Below are positions 15,628 to 59,686 of a stretch of DNA of 64,000 bases, piece after piece (within the stretch, counting starts at the first letter, position 1; each line of letters begins with the position of its first letter). Below the pieces are notes generated by a model. It worked only from the letters and a program-made list of their open reading frames with translations, had not been told where the DNA came from and searched no databases. The translations under genes and the position numbers were made by a program. Location of the stretch: NCBI GenBank assembly GCA_041649135.1, contig JBAZNQ010000001.1:99037-163036 (forward strand). Direction: 5' to 3'. Origin of the DNA: Patescibacteria group bacterium. GTDB taxonomy: Bacteria > Patescibacteriota > Kazan-3B-28.

Positions 15628-18045
15628 ATGTCTTACCCCGAATTTATTGTTTTAGATATCGAATCCACCGGCGTCGACTCCAAACACGACGACATTATTG
15701 AATTCTCTGCCGTCAAACTCAATGCTGCAGGTGAAATTATCGATCAACTCGATACTCTAGTTTCCACCAAACTTCTGCCACTTCGCCCACTAGTAGTTGC
15801 TCTGACTGGCATTAAAGATGAAGATTTTGAAGGTCAGCCGAATTTGGAAGCAGTCTTACCCAAAATCGAAGCCTTCTGCGGCGATTTGCCGATAGTGGGT
15901 CATAACATCAGTTTTGATGTTGAATTTTTACATGCCAAAGGGTTGAGCTTGAAAGGCGACTTGCTCGATACGTTGGAACTTGCCCAAACAGTTCTTACCA
16001 AACAACCAGCTTATAGTTTGGAAGGTCTCTGCTGGCGGTTCAATTTTCCCCATCAACCGTCTCATCGCGCTATGGCTGATGTTTTGGCTACTGTTGATTT
16101 AATGAAATTCCTAAGCCAGCAAATTGCCGATCTTAAAGCCGGTACGCGCAAAAAGGTTTTGGATACTCTGCCGGAAAAATCTTGGAACTGGCGTTGGCTG
16201 TTTGCAGAATCTTCTTTTGTCATCCCGAGCGAAGAACGTTCGACGTTCGGAGCGAAGAATCTAGGACAAAGTCCGCACATCACTCCCCACACGAGCAGTC
16301 TGATCGGCAGTCTCAATCAGGCTGAACAATTCTTACCAGACATCAAAACCGCTGAAACCGGCAAAATCAATTTTATTGAAACCCATTTTTCAATTGACCA
16401 ACTGTCCCTTGCCCTAGCTCACGCCATTGCCAAAAAACCGGCTGTATTAGTCGTGCCATTCAACGCTTGGCGAGAAATTGATTGGGAAGCAGTCGGCCAA
16501 GCCCATAACCTTAAACTGGCCGTTCGTGATCGCCAAGAATTTTTCTATCAGGCAGATAGTGAACTGGAATTGGCCAAATCTATGCCGTCCATTTCCGCTA
16601 CCGAAGCAAAATTGATCACCAAAGTTATCTTGTGGCGCAACGAATGGGGGAGCGACCCGTCAAAATTGTATCTGGTAAATGATGAGCTCTATCAATGGGA
16701 ACAAAAATTTGCTCCCATTGAAGTAAAAAAATCTCAACTTCCCGAACATGAAAAAGTTGATCTAATTATTGCCACCACCAGTTCCGTATTAGAGTTGGAA
16801 AATTTGGCAAGATACAATATCATCGTGCTTGATCCATTGAGTGTCGAGGAATCAGCGATGCGTATTAAATCTCGCACTCTGTCGTTAAATTACTTTAGCG
16901 CACTAGTTTCAAGTCGTCGGGATTTTGTACATCTCCAGATTCGTCCCAAAGATGTCAAACTGGCAGATTCATTATTCAAAATTCTTAACGATGTTAGTAG
17001 CAAACTTGCGGCTTTGAGCCCCATGTTGGTGGCGTGGTACGCCGCTAATCCGCCCAGCAATGTCTTTGACCGCAATACCGAACTCTCCGGTGTCAACATG
17101 ACTGATGAATTGCGCAGTCAGCTTGATCTGATCATCGAAGACTTATCGCAATATCTTGGTGTTATCATTGATGCTAAATTGCCCAATTCTAAATCACAGA
17201 TCGAACATACTGAAAAATTGATTATTCATTTAAAGGCTCTCGAAACAACGGATCCTAGCTTTAGATATTTCCTCAACGCGATCGAAAATCGATTCTATTT
17301 GGATATTCTTCCCGCTCATCCAGATTTTTCACTACTAGAGCGAATTTTAACAGATAGCAAATCCTGTACCGTGTTAGGCGCTGGTTTGTCCGTTCAGGGC
17401 AGGTTCAATTATTGGCACCAATCATTTGGTGAATTTAATAGTAAAGTGCTCAAAGACGATACCCCATTGGAATTATTGTTAGTGAAAGACTTGCCGGAAG
17501 GTGATGACTATCTGGAAGCGATCGGTAAATTTTCTAGCCAGATGATCGCCAACAATCCCTATTCACTCGTTTTAACTGGTTCCGCTTATGATACCGAAGA
17601 GCTCTTTGATTGGTTGTTGGCTCCCGTTACGGAAGCTGGGATCGCTCTCTCTAGCGCCAACACAACCAAAGCATTGGAGAAATTACCTGACCTAGTTGGC
17701 GCCAATCGGCATCTGGGAATTGTGGCTTACTATTGGTGGCTGGAACGAGCTCGGTTGTATTTACCAAATTTTGATTTGCTCCTGCTCGGCAAAATTCCTT
17801 TCGATCCCAACAGCCGACCGCAAGCCAAAGTGATGCAAGGGGATAATAACGGTTTCGATAGCTATACGATCCCGCGCACCACAATGAAACTCAAGGAGGT
17901 GCTTCATACTGCTTCTTTAATGAATTTCAAAACTCTAGTTTTAGCCGACAGTCGATTGGTGAAAAAAGATTATGGCGAACGGATCATCGGCTCCCTCGAA
18001 GGCTTCGTCGTCATTCCCCAAACTAGCAAAGAACTTCTCGGATAA
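15628..18045 (+). CDS. DnaQ-like 3'-5' exonuclease domain fused to a large DinG-like C-terminal region (helicase motifs not recognisable)
   Basis: N-terminal DEDDh motifs: VLDIESTGVD (Exo I), GHNISFDVEFL (Exo II), HRAMADV (Exo III). No Walker A seen in the 600-aa C-terminal part. Contains an in-frame MITE-like insert at 16219-16264. Confidence 0.55.
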   Translation: MSYPEFIVLDIESTGVDSKHDDIIEFSAVKLNAAGEIIDQLDTLVSTKLLPLRPLVVALTGIKDEDFEGQPNLEAVLPKIEAFCGDLPIVGHNISFDVEFLHAKGLSLKGDLLDTLELAQTVLTKQPAYSLEGLCWRFNFPHQPSHRAMADVLATVDLMKFLSQQIADLKAGTRKKVLDTLPEKSWNWRWLFAESSFVIPSEERSTFGAKNLGQSPHITPHTSSLIGSLNQAEQFLPDIKTAETGKINFIETHFSIDQLSLALAHAIAKKPAVLVVPFNAWREIDWEAVGQAHNLKLAVRDRQEFFYQADSELELAKSMPSISATEAKLITKVILWRNEWGSDPSKLYLVNDELYQWEQKFAPIEVKKSQLPEHEKVDLIIATTSSVLELENLARYNIIVLDPLSVEESAMRIKSRTLSLNYFSALVSSRRDFVHLQIRPKDVKLADSLFKILNDVSSKLAALSPMLVAWYAANPPSNVFDRNTELSGVNMTDELRSQLDLIIEDLSQYLGVIIDAKLPNSKSQIEHTEKLIIHLKALETTDPSFRYFLNAIENRFYLDILPAHPDFSLLERILTDSKSCTVLGAGLSVQGRFNYWHQSFGEFNSKVLKDDTPLELLLVKDLPEGDDYLEAIGKFSSQMIANNPYSLVLTGSAYDTEELFDWLLAPVTEAGIALSSANTTKALEKLPDLVGANRHLGIVAYYWWLERARLYLPNFDLLLLGKIPFDPNSRPQAKVMQGDNNGFDSYTIPRTTMKLKEVLHTASLMNFKTLVLADSRLVKKDYGERIIGSLEGFVVIPQTSKELLG

Positions 18046-18048
18046 AAT

Positions 18049-18075
18049 AAAGGGTCGCATCATGCGACCCTTTAA
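18049..18075 (+). terminator. Terminator after the DnaQ/DinG-like gene
   Basis: gggtcgcat-cat-gcgaccc + ttt. Confidence 0.55.
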
Positions 18076-18292
18076 AGATCTCTTGGCTATCCGGAAGAAT
18101 AGCAGTCCCAACCATCGCCGTCCAACCCGCCGCTGGAGAAACCCAGCCTGAAGGCGAGTAAGACAAGGAAGCATCCTCCGAAGATGCCCCGCCAAATCCT
18201 TAGCAGCAAGGTACACCTCCACACGATAAAACTGCGATCAATATATCGTTTTTTGCGCTTCTGGTCAACAAAGTCAGGATATAGTGCTTATG

Positions 18293-18321
18293 TTGACAAA
18301 ATGCTCATCCTATGCTACAAT
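18293..18321 (+). promoter_or_regulatory. Consensus sigma70 promoter (TTGACA-17-TACAAT) followed by no ORF
   Basis: ttgacaaaatgctcatcctatgctacaat; perfect -35, near-perfect -10, 17-nt spacer. Downstream is structured noncoding sequence. Confidence 0.6.
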
Positions 18322-19044
18322 GAAATAATTTGGTAACCCCTGCAGTGTGCTTTGCTCTACTGCAGGGCCGACGAATCTTTGAAAATTCACCTGTCCAGCT
18401 CGCATAGCTTCATGACAAGCTTTGTTAGCAGGAAGAGTAGGGGAATGCGAGATATCACTCCCCCCAGTGGTGTCTCGCATTCCCTTACTGTCCCGTATCA
18501 AAACTAAAATAAAATTTAGTGTTTTTGTACCTTAGATGAAACAATATTCCCCGCCATTCCTATAGTGGTTTGGAGAACAAGACAGTCGAAATTGCAAAAT
18601 GGCATCATTGCCGGCTGATCTCTCGAAACTAGCATTGGAATGGAGGGGCGGGACGGGAGGTGAACCCTTCTTGTCCCCCTGACCGTGCCAAAGTTATTTA
18701 ATTTTGGGCCCGCTGATCAGGGGGACTTTTTTGACCCCTCGGGGTCAACCCTCCGTAGCGTTATCTATTTCGAGAAGAGGATAAATATCCTAATTCGAGA
18801 AGAGATGTACGCGTAGGACGGGTAAGTATCATTGATTTATGTCCCCCCGAGGGGATTACCAAATCAACCATCAGGGGGACTTTTTTATGCCCATATATCA
18901 GAATTTCTTGCACTATACTGAACGGCCGTTCAGTATATTGTATTGCACTAGTTTGACCCGATGGAGGATATGGGAAATAATCAAACCAGTAGCGGGGGAC
19001 ATTTTCTCCGCTCGTAACTTATAAATCGGTGCCGGAGGTACACC

Positions 19045-19494
19045 ATGGGTTGCGGTCACGAGCAGACACGCAGGTTTGAAGAGAACACCACGTTGGCTGG
19101 CTTTGGTATGGCAATGTTCACATTTCTTACGCTCATCCAGACCAATGGAATCACGGCCGAGAACTTTGATGAGTTTAAGTCTAACGTGTTGGCTAGGCTT
19201 GCCGAATATGGCAATCAACTCGGTTTCGGTGACCTCTTTAAACCTAGCGCCAAGACGGAGAGTGAAACAGCTGCCCTAAGTCACCAGTTGGGTTTATGTG
19301 GACCCCCTGTACCGCTGTTTCGTTGTCATCTGCAACAGCTCTATCGGCTGCTGAAACGTTCGCAGGAACCACGGACACAACAGGGATACTACGACTTAGG
19401 GTACGAGCTGGCAAAATTACTTCAGGATATCAACAATGAGATTACCGCTCTTCAGCAAGCGCGGGACAAGAGGGAAAGCTCTAGCTGTTCCTGA
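19045..19494 (+). CDS. Hypothetical protein (higher-GC islet)
   Basis: 149 aa; followed by a strong terminator at 19508-19545 (gccgctgacgg...ctatcagcggc + ttttt). Confidence 0.45.
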   Translation: MGCGHEQTRRFEENTTLAGFGMAMFTFLTLIQTNGITAENFDEFKSNVLARLAEYGNQLGFGDLFKPSAKTESETAALSHQLGLCGPPVPLFRCHLQQLYRLLKRSQEPRTQQGYYDLGYELAKLLQDINNEITALQQARDKRESSSCS

Positions 19495-39430: not shown

Positions 39431-39439
39431 GCCTCCCTG

Positions 39440-39833
39440 TTCGTCATTCCCGCTCCACTCTTCGTCATTCCCGCGTAGGCGGGAATCCAGAAAGAAAAAA
39501 TAACAATCTATGAAATGTCTGCTTATGTCTACATCTTAGCCAATGGCAAAAATGGGACCTTATACACCGGCGTGACAGTACCATTGGTCAAGAGGGTGTA
39601 CGAACACAAGAGCAAATTTATTTCTGGATTCGCTGAACAATACAACGCAACCGACCTAGTCTATTACGAAATATTTGACGATATAGAAAACGCTATTCTT
39701 CGCGAAAAACATATCAAAAAATGGCATCGAGAATGGAAAATTAAATTGATCGAGAAAAATAATCCACAATGGAAAGATCTATACCAAGAAATTTTAGTTT
39801 AATGTCTGGATTCCCGCCTTTGCGGGAATGACG
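39440..39833. mobile_element. Full-length palindromic element carrying an intact GIY-YIG nuclease gene; candidate autonomous parent of the MITE family
   Basis: Left arm ttcgtcattcccgctccactcttcgtcattcccgcgtaggcgggaatccagaaag; right arm tctggattcccgcctttgcgggaatgac; 288-nt ORF in between. Confidence 0.7.
39515..39802 (+). CDS. GIY-YIG nuclease superfamily protein (YhbQ/UPF0213-like, 95 aa)
   Basis: MSAYVYILANGKNGTLYTGVTVPLVKRVYEHK (GIY-N10-YTG motif with a conserved R and E); a remnant paralog at 25359-25477. Confidence 0.75.
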   Translation: MSAYVYILANGKNGTLYTGVTVPLVKRVYEHKSKFISGFAEQYNATDLVYYEIFDDIENAILREKHIKKWHREWKIKLIEKNNPQWKDLYQEILV

Positions 39834-39883
39834 AACGTATGGCCAAGTGGTGGAATGGTATAGTGCACCCCATAAAATTTTTT

Positions 39884-39970
39884 GGCTCGGTGGCGGAACT
39901 GGTATACGCGCACGACTCAAAATCGTGTATCCGCAAGGATGTGTGGGTTCGATTCCCACCCGAGCCACCA
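39884..39970 (+). tRNA. tRNA-Leu (anticodon CAA), class II with long variable arm, CCA encoded
   Basis: Acceptor GGCTCGG/CCGAGCC, anticodon stem-loop cacga-CTCAAAA-tcgtg, 16-nt variable arm, T-arm tgggTTCGATTccca, ACCA end. Confidence 0.8.
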
Positions 39971-40039
39971 AAAAATTCAACGGGGCACGCAACGACTTCC
40001 ACCGTCGTTCAATCTCACTCCAACTAGGTCATTTGCCTC

Positions 40040-40112
40040 TTGGAGTATAGATATCACTTTGGCGGACAGGCGCCATCGTGTGGGGCAACCCTTGAGAGTT
40101 CGAGTCTCTCCT
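40040..40112 (+). other. tRNA-like 3' half (T-arm + acceptor 3' strand + CCA) with no recognisable 5' half
   Basis: gagagTTCGAGTctctc ctcggcc a cca. Its last 20 nt are repeated at 40256-40275; the strong hairpin 40113-40162 lies between them. Confidence 0.35.
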
Positions 40113-40335
40113 CGGCCACCAAGAGCGAGAATCCAACTTGTTTGGATCTTGGCTCTTGGTAGATTAAAAAAGACGAGAAGCAAGGTCCGCCACAATGCAA
40201 TCTATATCGCAAGAGACGAATGATCTATTTGCGATGAGATTAAATGACGGCGGAAGTCTCTCCTCGGCCACCAAAATAGAAAGTTAGCTCTCAACATAGG
40301 TTATTCTGCTCATCCCTCTTGACAGAGTGGCTTAG

Positions 40336-40833
40336 TTGTGGTATAAAGAAGAAAGTCGGGTTTTCCCTATACCAATGCTACAATTAATCTATCAATCCAT
40401 GATGCAGAAAAAGATTATCTTAATTCTAATCGGCCTTGTAGCAATCGGCGGCTTAAGTGGCTGCGCAGTTACCAATAATTCAAGCTCAACTACTGATAAT
40501 TCGGTTAAGGGTGAACAAACGGTGGTAGTACCAACCGACTCTAGGTGGGAAAATTTGGCTAAGGCTCTCACGGCCGCTGGCGCCAAAATGTATGGTGCCT
40601 ATTGGTGTAGTCATTGTCAGGCGCAAAAAGCAATGTTCGGTTCAGCTTGGCAATCTGCCCCCTACGTTGAATGTTCGCCTAATAAAAACGATCCTTCCGT
40701 ACAATCACCAGCCTGTGTTACTGCCGGTCTTCAGGGATATCCCACTTGGATTTTCGCCGATGGTACTCGGGTAGAACGTGTGATGAGCTTCGATGAACTC
40801 GCCCAAAAGATTGATTATCAACCGTCAACTTAA
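40336..40833 (+). CDS. Thioredoxin-like lipoprotein of the VKOR-associated type (CxxC)
   Basis: Lipobox LSGC. KMYGAYWCSHCQAQKAMFG ... YVECSPN ... CVTAGLQGYPTWIF resembles the periplasmic Trx-like domain fused to bacterial VKOR homologues. Confidence 0.6.
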   Translation: MWYKEESRVFPIPMLQLIYQSMMQKKIILILIGLVAIGGLSGCAVTNNSSSTTDNSVKGEQTVVVPTDSRWENLAKALTAAGAKMYGAYWCSHCQAQKAMFGSAWQSAPYVECSPNKNDPSVQSPACVTAGLQGYPTWIFADGTRVERVMSFDELAQKIDYQPST

Positions 40834-57828: not shown

Positions 57829-58111
57829 AGGTTTAATTTTTCATTTCAGTTGGGAAATAGCCTACCAACCTCCTTTTTCCCTTGACACACTCACCAATTT
57901 GTGTCATACTCCCCAAGTACTGATGAAAGGGCATTGCGACCTCTTGAACGGGGTCGTATTTTATTACTCGATCAGATACCTCTGTAATGGTTTAGATGAT
58001 AGAGCTTTGATTGAGTCCTCCTAAGCGTTATCTATATCAGAAGAGACAAATAACCTGTTTCTGATGAGATAAAGCGAAGGATGGACCCACATATTTCAAC
58101 AAAGCAAAATA

Positions 58112-59510: not shown

Positions 59511-59686
59511 ACAAAAAACAGCGCCGCAGGCACCACCAAAACTTTTTCATCGCAGATCCTTCGACCTGTCCGCCATAGCTTTAGCGACGGAGGAAGCCTT
59601 GGCGGAGGAGGACCATTCACTTTTAACTTTCTGCTATCTCAAATTATTCACTGTTCACTATTCACTTTTAACTTTTCATTATCTCT

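Follow-up and report, generated by a model that had tools for sequence, protein, structure and literature searches.

The single intact tRNA-Leu(CAA) gene in the 64-kb stretch of Patescibacteria (CPR) DNA analysed here (the window) is surrounded by pieces of tRNA sequence, raising the question as to whether these are the marks of site-specific integration, parts of a functioning device, or the debris of an older gene. The preliminary description favored the first of these, and all five of the items that it reported are present on the forward strand, at coordinates that are off by 1-9 nt. The locus lies in a glyA - tRNA-Leu(CAA) - thioredoxin-like gene synteny that is common to the window and its relatives. 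Between positions 39800 and 40400 a JGI contig and an ENA contig are identical to the window at every base, and two Logan contigs, which break at window position 40075, are also identical from there to 40400; this identity across four independent assemblies shows that the locus is not an assembly artefact. We conclude that it is an insertion and recombination hotspot that holds decaying tRNA remnants, and that the region probably represents what is left of the tRNA-Leu(CAA) gene that this lineage originally had, together with the gene that replaced it.

The origin of the fragments can be approached by comparison with about ten relatives (referred to as L007, L009 and so on), in which the direction of change, insertion or deletion, was assigned by parsimony over the relatives. 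In L007, L146 and L009, glyA (or the same downstream genes) is followed by one simple tRNA-Leu(CAA) of what we call the X type and then by the thioredoxin-like gene, and from these three genomes the single X-type tRNA appears to be the ancestral state; an X-type tRNA is carried by the six closest relatives. The X gene is found in the window as three collinear pieces of the forward strand:

39841-39862, forward strand: X piece 1, nt 1-22 (GGCCAAGTGGTGGAATGGTATA), 22/22 identical to the intact tRNAs of L009 and L146
39986-39997, forward strand: X piece 2, nt 23-33 (CACGCAACGACT) plus one extra A, collinear with pieces 1 and 3
40075-40121, forward strand: X piece 3, nt 38-84, 47/47 identical to the intact L007 tRNA and 46/47 to that of L146

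Piece 3 contains the last loop base, the 3′ strand of the anticodon stem, the variable arm, the T arm, the 3′ strand of the acceptor stem and ACCA. Compared with functional X genes the three pieces score 22/22, 11/11 with one inserted base, and 47/47, and the tRNA-derived pieces in the window are nearly unmutated (80/81 nt). What is missing is nt 34-37 (CAAA), anticodon included; an uninterrupted X gene would read ...CTCAAAA + ATCGTGTGGGG at the junction near 40075, and when the pieces are joined in silico ARAGORN calls a tRNA-Leu(CAA) only if CAAA is restored by hand. The preliminary description placed a partial copy of the adjacent gene's 5′ half directly after the GIY-YIG element, and a fragment does begin there, 3′ of the GIY-YIG cassette (the 95-aa protein of which is encoded at 39515-39802), with 22 clean nucleotides and a degenerate remainder possibly extending to about 39883; however, it matches the adjacent gene at only 18/23 positions. 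Similarly, piece 3 and the adjacent gene agree at only 35/47 positions. The fragments are therefore a different tRNA-Leu(CAA) allele from the adjoining intact gene, which was not recognized before, and these alignments identify them as the remains of the ancestral resident X gene, not copies of its neighbor. The tRNA-like 3′ half that had been reported at 40040-40112 exists, at 40075-40121, but it does not lack a 5′ half as was thought, since X nt 1-22 and 23-33 precede it in their proper sequence. Piece 2 was absent from the earlier account; its terminal four nucleotides, GACT, overlap the end of a hairpin element, and an equivalent, (ACA)CGCACGACT, is found 5′ of the hairpin insert in L010, L011, L013 and L150.

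X pieces 1 and 2 are separated by a 123-nt insert containing a complete tRNA-Leu(CAA) of a different type, which we call N:

39863-39985, forward strand: 123-nt insertion with the replacement tRNA and its own flanks, not present in L007, L009 or L146, where the X gene is intact
39868-39885 and 39968-39985: 18-nt inverted repeat bracketing the tRNA within this insertion
39884-39970, forward strand: intact N-type tRNA-Leu(CAA), identified by ARAGORN and by Rfam RF00005 (59.6 bits)

This gene, which was already recognized in the preliminary description, is the only tRNA-Leu(CAA) gene in the 64-kb window and is presumably the working one. The N type differs from the X type in the acceptor, D, variable and T arms, and among the relatives compared it occurs only in the window and in L010 and L143, where it is 100% identical. 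Its T arm matches that of the distant L014, and the 5′ flank of the insert, CCCCATAAAATTTT, is the same as the 5′ flank of the native tRNA-Leu(CAA) in distant L015 at 14/14 nt; the flank upstream of the intact tRNA contains TAAAAT, a -10-like box. Taken together, the restricted occurrence, the T arm and the 5′ flank suggest that the intact N gene is of foreign origin.

X pieces 2 and 3 are separated by a 74-nt copy of a dispersed hairpin repeat, with the anticodon removed. This copy (copy A) and a linker at 40068-40074 occupy the place of X nt 34-37, and copy A forms, with a second copy further downstream (copy B), a previously unreported 74-nt ungapped inverted repeat with 57 Watson-Crick and five G-T pairs (score 23, compared with a maximum of 11 in 300 shuffles). 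The arms belong to a structured repeat that occurs at least five times in the window:

39994-40067, reverse strand: copy A, in the former anticodon loop, covariance model 99.1 bits
40185-40258, forward strand: copy B, inverted relative to copy A, covariance model 98.6 bits
58015-58088, forward strand: copy 24 nt upstream of a DEAD-box helicase gene (Pfam), covariance models 59.7 and 86.7 bits
18748-18825, forward strand: diverged copy in a gene-free 1-kb stretch, covariance models 23.4 and 63.1 bits, the latter from model R2, whose building included this copy
59568-59598, forward strand: short 31-nt ends-only copy between the DEAD-box helicase and BipA genes, covariance model 20.1 bits, basal stem only

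Copy B matches the reverse complement of copy A at 57/74 positions, and copy A folds at -28.0 kcal/mol on the reverse strand compared with -20.8 kcal/mol on the other. Short forms of the element occupy the same anticodon-loop site in L010, L011, L013 and L150, the L010 palindrome agreeing in reverse complement with the short copy at 59568 at about 25/31 positions as judged by eye, and L150 also has a degenerate orthologous copy B at the equivalent place. Plain BLAST returned no hairpin repeat copies elsewhere in the window, and these were revealed by the covariance model only. All five copies lie outside of ORFs with Pfam hits, and an imperfect-palindrome hairpin is maintained among them, with 24 pairs and 93% of cells paired; compensatory changes occur at 12 of the 24 pairs, a level reached in 0/500 shuffles, and controls with slid pairings give at most two. 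We find no target-site duplication flanking the copies, both tRNA-embedded members sharing a 4-nt GACT overlap with their target, and no transposase for the repeat among the ORFs from 19 to 56 kb. An Rfam scan of another hairpin copy gave no family match, and we regard the repeat as an undescribed, covariation-supported family in Patescibacteria that is absent from Rfam. We also considered whether the segment between the two arms is invertible and rejected it, because the Logan contigs cross the inner boundary at 40184 unbroken, with no sign of inversion.

The third disruption is at the 3′ end of piece 3, 20 nt of which recur as a direct repeat on either side of a 132-nt insert:

40103-40122, forward strand: direct repeat copy 1 (AGTCTCTCCTCGGCCACCAA), spanning the T loop to CCA+1
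40118-40160, forward strand: 43-nt hairpin with 17 predicted bp, starting inside ACCA, -23.2 kcal/mol, z = -4.4
40123-40274, forward strand: 152-nt insertion at the T-loop/3′ end, one repeat copy counted, with 132 nt between copies
40255-40274, forward strand: direct repeat copy 2, the right border of the 152-nt insertion

The sequence AGTCTCTCCTCGGCCACCA is exact at 40103 and 40255 and the repeat extends to 20 nt (BLAST E = 2.4e-5 in the 64-kb window), with the first four nucleotides of copy 2, AGTC, overlapping the end of copy B. The second copy of the last 20 nt had been correctly noted, although the start-to-start spacing is 152 nt and not 160 nt. The proposal that the piece between the copies is the residue of a decayed insert stands in part. 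In L010 and L143 the same X 3′ half has a single repeat copy followed by AAT, and AAT also lies 3′ of copy 2 in the window, indicating that L010 represents an empty site for the 152-nt insert; but the 132 nt between the copies are largely a member of the dispersed hairpin repeat, copy B, which lies at the insert's end. The strong hairpin described earlier is likewise real, with bounds of 40118-40160 instead of 40113-40162, and 0/200 shuffles are as stable. No T run follows it, a search for terminator-like sites was negative, and BLAST detects no further copies of this hairpin within the window; in L150 this hairpin is missing and the equivalent of repeat copy 2 is degenerate.

The comparison across strains that was proposed at the outset bears out the claim that this is a hotspot, as the architecture of the locus differs among syntenic relatives, with at least six distinct versions. 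Differing insertions are present in L009, L012, L014, L138 and L150, several of them flanked by 20-27-nt direct repeats, and in three lineages unrelated foreign sequences adjoin fragments that run from the T loop to CCA, as predicted for a preferred integration point. The features of the relatives conflict with a simple tree, which counts against the parsimony assignment of insertions and deletions: the window resembles L010 in its N gene, L009 in its GIY-YIG cassette, and L150 in its T-loop insert. The X 3′ half is lost in L013 and L150 and there is a T-stem mismatch in L011, which together with the degenerate copy 2 in L150 we take as support for decay where sequence is unconstrained. No integrase, recombinase or transposase Pfam families are found among the ORFs from 19 to 56 kb, about 15-20 kb around the locus, and no alternative alleles of the thioredoxin-like protein were retrieved.

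Because three in-order pieces of the original tRNA-Leu(CAA) gene are broken by small insertions, the region of tRNA fragments most probably represents a scar at a hotspot of insertion and not a functioning device. A plausible history is that arrival of the imported N copy made the resident X gene dispensable, and that its remains, by now non-functional and decaying, took their present form through successive insertions and through recombination between related lineages for which tRNA sequence would have been the only conserved homology. The break in the X gene at nt 22 is the point where the GIY-YIG cassette sits in a relative's tRNA, and nuclease-induced breaks may therefore seed disruption of the X gene there. 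The hairpin copies may have come by the spread of a small palindromic repeat of the REP/MITE type, the repeat end GACTTCC meeting the tRNA at GACT in both tRNA-embedded copies, and the long hairpin that copies A and B can form would be a by-product. The 20-nt duplication would most simply be the border pair of a T-loop/3′-end integration, the interior of which was either lost or always small; no enzyme behind any of the insertions was identified among the ORFs from 19 to 56 kb.

There are nonetheless observations that count against this reading. The interrupted pseudo-tRNA module (motif CGCACGACTTCCRCCG ... TTTGGCGGACAGGCGCCATCGTG) also occurs in a lineage whose GlyA is just 75% identical, and the module's non-tRNA flanks agree at about 26/28 nt in an alignment read by eye; with the near absence of mutations in the pieces, selection or recent horizontal spread fits better than plain decay. 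A 20-nt duplication with no integrase is also compatible with a tRNA-linked repeat of the type seen in E. coli. A further alternative, which seems to us distinctly unlikely, is that the complete tRNA-Leu(CAA) and the 5′-truncated pseudo-tRNA with its anticodon-loop hairpin form a compact mobile cassette for gene replacement, or else a conserved landing pad. Such a cassette would disable the resident single-copy essential tRNA, supply its own, become indispensable, and spread between Patescibacteria lineages. If so, it would explain the nearly unmutated pieces and the conserved module flanks, and also the swapping of full-gene and pseudogene types (N with an X remnant in the window and L010, X with an N′-type remnant in L011) and the nesting in L012, where a full gene of a third type lies between the 5′ and 3′ scraps of another gene.

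Of the other explanations that we weighed against a wrecked and replaced X gene, the one closest to the preliminary description is that all of the fragments are attL/attR scars of tyrosine-integrase elements that entered the anticodon loop and T loop and were later excised or deleted. The direct repeat is indeed a 3′ tRNA segment reaching the gene end, its copies bracket an insert for which L010 and L143 provide the empty site, T-loop-to-CCA fragments lie beside unrelated sequences in three lineages, and the piece boundaries fall in the anticodon loop and T loop, which Williams in 2002 reportedly identified as classical sublocations of tRNA-targeting integrases. We nevertheless consider it unlikely that scars of this kind account for everything, as there is no repeat copy within the intact tRNA, the 3′ end of which matches the 20-nt repeat at only 15/19 positions, copy 1 being in the disrupted piece; the 5′ and 3′ halves of the intact gene are both foreign and self-consistent and it is therefore not a host/element hybrid; and the anticodon-loop insert is a dispersed repeat member and not an element end. 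No recombinase gene is found in or next to the 132-nt insert or elsewhere among the ORFs from 19 to 56 kb. Viral contigs, phages and plasmids provide no matches either: when viral contigs were scanned for exact occurrences of the module motif and the hairpin core, no genuine candidate for a viral attP emerged, all 49 matches to a 14-base pattern being without the second motif, and BLAST matches in phages and plasmids are to tRNA-Leu T arms only. In favor of scars, the borders of integrated elements commonly carry partial copies of a tRNA (PMC9897764). We consider it very unlikely that the 152-nt unit at 40123-40274 is equivalent to the tRNA-linked repeats of E. coli, co-transcribed and processed by means of its tRNA-like 3′ end to yield a hairpin small RNA. 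The unit does lie directly 3′ of a tRNA sequence and ends in the 3′ end of that sequence (20 identical nt), there is no terminator between it and the intact tRNA, and it contains two stable hairpins; however, the tRNA sequence upstream is part of a pseudogene, a repeat present elsewhere makes up half of the unit, L010 has no such unit, and L150 has a degenerate tRNA-like end and lacks the 43-nt hairpin.

It is highly improbable that 39994-40274 is one functional structured RNA, in which a dsRNA stem of about 74 bp capped by a T arm and CCA would be a substrate for processing, would regulate as an antisense RNA or dsRNA, or would mimic a tRNA in the manner of a primer. Both strands fold very stably (z = -8.2 and -9.6), the 3′ half resembles a tRNA perfectly and the sequence is invariant in four assemblies; but the arms are autonomous hairpins of a dispersed family that covary within copies and not arm-to-arm, L150 has one arm only, L010, L011 and L013 have only short palindromes, the acceptor 5′ strand is not found nearby, and there is no Rfam match. 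Folding of the short versions is no more stable than that of shuffled sequences (z = -0.76 and +0.29), and a conserved short module RNA was rejected on the same grounds. Rfam searches of the window region and six relatives, at gathering and permissive thresholds, recover tRNA as the only known RNA family. A one- or two-piece tmRNA was also discarded: ARAGORN finds none by default, there is no GGYYGRG acceptor 5′ strand nearby on the forward strand, the G3-U70 pair is absent (the 3′ strand has G instead of U at position 70), and Rfam tmRNA_permuted reaches no more than 13.6 bits, on the intact tRNA's T arm; a tmRNAp* prediction made by ARAGORN at a low threshold on the reverse strand was disregarded because it runs beyond the region. 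That the interrupted X gene still works, as an intervening-sequence, split or permuted tRNA processed to maturity, is barely credible. Its three pieces are ordered, on a single strand and nearly unmutated, but not all parts of the cloverleaf are present, nt 34-37 with the anticodon being missing; one "intron" would hold a complete tRNA gene; no group I intron or other Rfam family was found in a permissive scan, and there is no recognised intron type; and the 3′ part is lost in L013 and L150. The archaeal splicing endonuclease is, to our knowledge, absent from bacteria. The preliminary description had named two findings that would speak against an integration hotspot and neither is observed: there is no complete or intron-bearing canonical tRNA at the 3′ half, ARAGORN intron modes detecting nothing there and finding the intact gene only, and every assembly contains the second repeat copy.

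The genomes of Patescibacteria are tiny, and with only one tRNA-Leu(CAA) in the 64-kb window the locus illustrates how an essential tRNA may be swapped for an import and then decay. It suggests that tRNA sequence can serve both as a recurrent breakpoint and as a recombination anchor between diverged lineages, and it carries a warning for annotation, in that the tRNA halves and CCA-ended fragments at this locus are better treated as debris than as split or tRNA-like genes. The hairpin repeat family can now be searched for genome-wide.

Several known systems resemble parts of this structure. Partial tRNA gene copies remain at the borders of integrated mobile elements as attL/attR duplications (PMC9897764), and the window shares with these a 3′ tRNA direct repeat that brackets foreign DNA, breakpoints that lie in the anticodon loop and T loop, an empty site in a relative, and repeated use of the locus; it differs in that the insert is 132 nt with no integrase, the intact gene has no repeat copy, and the presumed working tRNA comes from its own complete, imported gene lying inside the old one. 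In E. coli, the tRNA-linked repeats (TLRs) found in tRNA and rRNA operons end in 18-20 nt that repeat the tRNA 3′ end (PMC8144298), and the window unit similarly lies directly downstream of a tRNA sequence whose 3′ end it repeats; unlike TLRs it lacks conservation among relatives, comes after part of a pseudogene, and contains one copy of the dispersed hairpin repeat. This 74-nt element is like REP/BIME and MITE sequences (PMC3184786, PMC2817692, PMC10969869) in being a multi-copy, intergenic, imperfect palindrome whose hairpin is kept, in having long and ends-only forms, and in the presence of two opposed copies close together, as in BIMEs; it is unlike them in that its copies show no target-site duplication and the ORFs from 19 to 56 kb include no transposase that could belong to it, and the family is unrelated in sequence, absent from Rfam, and located inside tRNA-derived sequence. 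Another parallel is in Caldiarchaeum, for which disruption of a tRNA gene by a mobile element together with recombination has been modelled (PMC3293823). Both cases show lineage or population heterogeneity at one tRNA locus and a 5′ fragment upstream of a full gene with foreign DNA between them, and both integration and homologous recombination are invoked; but the Caldiarchaeum example is archaeal, with a 1.8-kb recombinase-bearing insert and functional intron-bearing tRNAs as products, whereas the window is bacterial, has no recombinase from 19 to 56 kb, and contains a disrupted gene that is probably dead.

The tRNA-Leu(CAA) locus of the window comprises the following features, in which X denotes the tRNA-Leu(CAA) gene type originally resident in this clade and N the intact, imported type:

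from 39841, + strand: tRNA-like 5′ fragment, directly after the GIY-YIG cassette
39863-39985: insertion 1, 123 nt, carrying the intact N-type gene
39884-39970, + strand: intact tRNA-Leu(CAA) (ARAGORN; Rfam tRNA, 59.6 bits)
39986-39997, + strand: CACGCAACGACT, X nt 23-33 plus one extra A, between the other two X pieces and in the correct order
40075-40121, + strand: tRNA 3′ half ending in ACCA, seen in the sequence
40118-40160, + strand: stable hairpin (-23.2 kcal/mol, z = -4.4)
40103-40122 and 40255-40274, + strand: exact 20-nt direct repeat, copies 152 nt apart (E = 2.4e-5 within the window)

The 5′ fragment, intact tRNA, 3′ half, hairpin and second repeat copy of the preliminary description are all present in the sequence; its 3′ half had been placed at 40040-40112, about 9 nt off the position at 40075-40121, and its second copy of the last 20 nt is exact, at a distance of 152 nt (40255-40274) rather than 160 nt. 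That inventory was incomplete, as a 74-nt ungapped inverted repeat (39994-40067 / 40185-40258; 57 Watson-Crick and 5 G-T pairs, far above shuffles) had gone unnoticed, and it is because of this repeat that the whole region has a very stable fold on either strand (z = -8.2 and -9.6). A JGI contig and an ENA contig agree with 39800-40400 at every base, and two Logan contigs likewise with 40075-40400, so that the 20-nt duplication is no assembly artefact.

When one genome per species was scanned with the T-arm/acceptor segment of the 3′ half, a related 560-kb genome, L007, was found; here a single simple tRNA-Leu(CAA) of 84 nt lies between glyA and the thioredoxin-like gene, which follows the tRNA directly. 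Metagenome loci retrieved via GlyA form a gradient of relatives that keep this gene order, with GlyA identities to the window of 93% (L009 and L150), 89% (L010), 85% (L007, L011 and L012), 75-76% (L013 and L014) and 70% (L015); retrieval via the thioredoxin-like protein added L143 (89%) and loci off the GlyA scale, such as L146. X-type genes are found in the six closest lineages (L007, L009, L011, L013, L146 and L150). The window's 3′ half matches the L007 X gene at 47 of 47 positions and the adjacent intact gene at 35 of 47, and nt 1-22 of the 5′ fragment agree in full with the X-type tRNAs in L009 and L146 (22/22, versus 18/23 for the adjacent gene). The fragments thus derive from the X allele, and the 5′ fragment is not a degenerate copy of its intact neighbour as had been proposed. 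Nor is the 3′ half without any 5′ half, since X nt 1-22 and 23-33 lie upstream of it in order; the latter piece is also found ahead of an insert of the same kind in L010, L011, L013 and L150. With nt 38-84 included, the window lacks only X nt 34-37 (CAAA, including the anticodon), and when the pieces are joined in silico and CAAA is restored ARAGORN calls a tRNA-Leu(CAA). A complete tRNA with an unrecognised intron was also considered; on the region in place, the intron-aware and low-threshold modes of ARAGORN find only the intact gene.

The N-type gene of insertion 1 is identical in L010 and L143. Elsewhere in the clade the X genes do not resemble it; it shares its T arm with the distant L014, and its immediate 5′ flank, CCCCATAAAATTTT, which includes a TAAAAT -10-like box, is identical to the one preceding the native tRNA-Leu(CAA) in L015, likewise a distant relative. 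N is therefore an imported and self-sufficient gene that sits within the old one. An 18-nt inverted repeat (39868-39885 / 39968-39985, 83% complementary) brackets the intact tRNA, whose leader and trailer could pair through it as a processing stem; the TAAAAT box lies in its 5′ arm, which is common to the native L015 locus.

The left arm of the 74-nt inverted repeat forms insertion 2, within the anticodon loop, and the 20-nt direct repeat delimits insertion 3 (152 nt counting one repeat copy) at the T-loop/3′ end. In L010 the same 3′ half carries a single repeat copy, with AAT behind it just as behind the second copy in the window; this locus therefore represents an empty site for insertion 3, in agreement with the suggestion of an insert between the 20-nt copies. 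Degenerate versions of the right arm and of the second repeat copy are present in L150, so that insertion 3 is older than the split between the window and L150. Both tRNA-embedded hairpin copies meet tRNA sequence through a 4-nt overlap, GACT (CACGACT/C in the anticodon loop; GAGAGACT/C, on the other strand, in the T loop), which hints at a target preference or microhomology.

Each arm of the 74-nt inverted repeat folds on itself, and a covariance model built from both arms and the L150 copy identified further members in the window:

58015-58088, + strand: hairpin repeat copy, upstream of a DEAD-box helicase gene
18748-18825, + strand: hairpin repeat copy
59568-59598, + strand: ends-only 31-nt form of the hairpin repeat

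Across five copies the 24 pairs are 93% paired, with compensatory changes in 12, a covariation reached by none of 500 column shuffles and compared with no more than 2 in shifted controls; one U-G pair is invariant, and the better fold is in the orientation 5′-GUCCGCC...GGCGGAAGUC. The short palindromes at the anticodon-loop position in L010, L011, L013 and L150 have the same ends. Because the arms are self-folding, have more members in the window and share their ends with the relatives' palindromes, the apparent long hairpin is two oppositely oriented copies of a dispersed, structured palindromic repeat rather than a dedicated stem. Rfam contains no matching family, and the repeat (about 74 nt, with a 31-nt ends-only form) is undescribed. 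Four of the five copies are on the + strand, the strand of 83% of the coding sequence. The 1-kb stretch at 18045-19045, without an ORF of at least 70 aa, holds one copy together with several repeats, for example GGGGGACTTTTTT twice.

Comparison of the locus across lineages shows differing events at the same gene in L009, L012, L014, L138 and L150, in agreement with the integration hotspot proposed earlier. In L014 a GIY-YIG cassette follows tRNA nt 24 and is flanked by a direct repeat of 24 nt from the 5′ part of the tRNA (L014 3163-3585); L012 has a full tRNA of a third type, preceded by a 12-nt 5′ remnant and followed by a 19-nt remnant from T loop to CCA, both of another type; and in L138 a different foreign sequence abuts GTCTCTCCTCGGCCACCA. 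In L009 (3700-4200) and L150 (2000-2510) a 91-aa ORF cassette, another insertion bounded by a long direct repeat, lies between repeats of about 27 nt (ATGCTACAATTAAC...ACACCAA) that cover the promoter region and start of the thioredoxin-like gene. A conserved extended -10-like TGCTACAAT is found 6-14 nt upstream of that gene's start codon (window 40374-40385; L007 4904-4912, minus strand, directly after the tRNA CCA; L009 4178-4190), which suggests a very short leader or perhaps a leaderless mRNA.

Breakpoints coincide at tRNA nt 22 in the window (39862/39863), where the old gene is broken next to the GIY-YIG cassette, at about nt 22 (~39986) where the interrupted pseudo-tRNA begins, and at nt 24 beside the L014 cassette; this recurrence next to GIY-YIG cassettes suggests that small GIY-YIG nucleases may cut the tRNA-Leu(CAA) gene. 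Of the window's features, N recurs in L010, the GIY-YIG cassette in L009 and the T-loop insert in L150, a mosaic that implies recombination between lineages. Other repeats also occur here. Hairpins of a second family, ATTCCCGC(N4)GCGGGAAT (GTCATTCCCGC...GCGGGAATGAC), flank the GIY-YIG ORF (window 39437-39498 and 39798-39836) and are present without an ORF at the same place upstream of the L009, L010 and L012 tRNAs and at window ~25483. The elements GGGGGAG..CCCCGCAT..GACGCTAC..ATAACAGG (L012 3985-4075, L013 3898-3960) and GGCCCCACAGCAGTGGGGAAACA (L009 3538-3565, L138 8-30) lie beside tRNA fragments.

Taken as a whole, the region is probably a replaced and shattered tRNA gene at an insertion/recombination hotspot where a new hairpin repeat occurs twice. 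The reading of the tRNA fragments as att scars is supported in part: the 20-nt copies do bracket an insert, as the empty site in L010 indicates, but the stretch from 19 to 56 kb of the window, where the genes are housekeeping, encodes neither a recombinase nor a transposase. Some room is left for a mobile 'replacement cassette', although we regard this as improbable. The module (the interrupted pseudo-tRNA with its anticodon-loop hairpin element) is common to lineages down to 75% GlyA identity, with non-tRNA flanks alike at about 26 of 28 nt in an alignment read by eye; the window's tRNA-derived pieces are nearly unmutated (80/81 identical to working genes); the full and the remnant gene have exchanged types in L011 relative to L010 and the window; and the two independent Logan assemblies (L002 and L003, position 1) both begin their contig precisely at 40075, where the 3′ half starts. 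This break implies a branch in the assembly graph, and one possible explanation is that an allele with an unbroken X gene coexists and continues into identical downstream sequence. Neither module nor hairpin is shared with phages, plasmids or viral contigs.

Nothing supports a present function for the replaced gene's region. No acceptor 5′ strand was found for the 3′ half, ARAGORN and Rfam give no match in the region to a tmRNA, intron or other RNA family, and the folds of the short module forms are no better than expected by chance. L013 and L150 have lost the 3′ half, and in L011 it has a mismatch in the T stem.

Partial tRNA copies are common at the borders of integrated elements (PMC9897764), and there is an archaeal precedent in the integration and recombination model for tRNA fragments at one locus (PMC3293823). 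The 152-nt unit falls within the formal definition of the E. coli tRNA-linked repeats, in which the final 18-19 bp are a copy of the 3′ end of the preceding gene and whose function is mostly unknown (PMC8144298), and the arms of the 74-nt inverted repeat resemble REP/BIME or MITE-type repeats (PMC3184786, PMC2817692). The locus differs from these systems in the absence of a recombinase (19-56 kb), in an undescribed hairpin family without a match in Rfam, and in a complete replacement tRNA nested inside the old gene.
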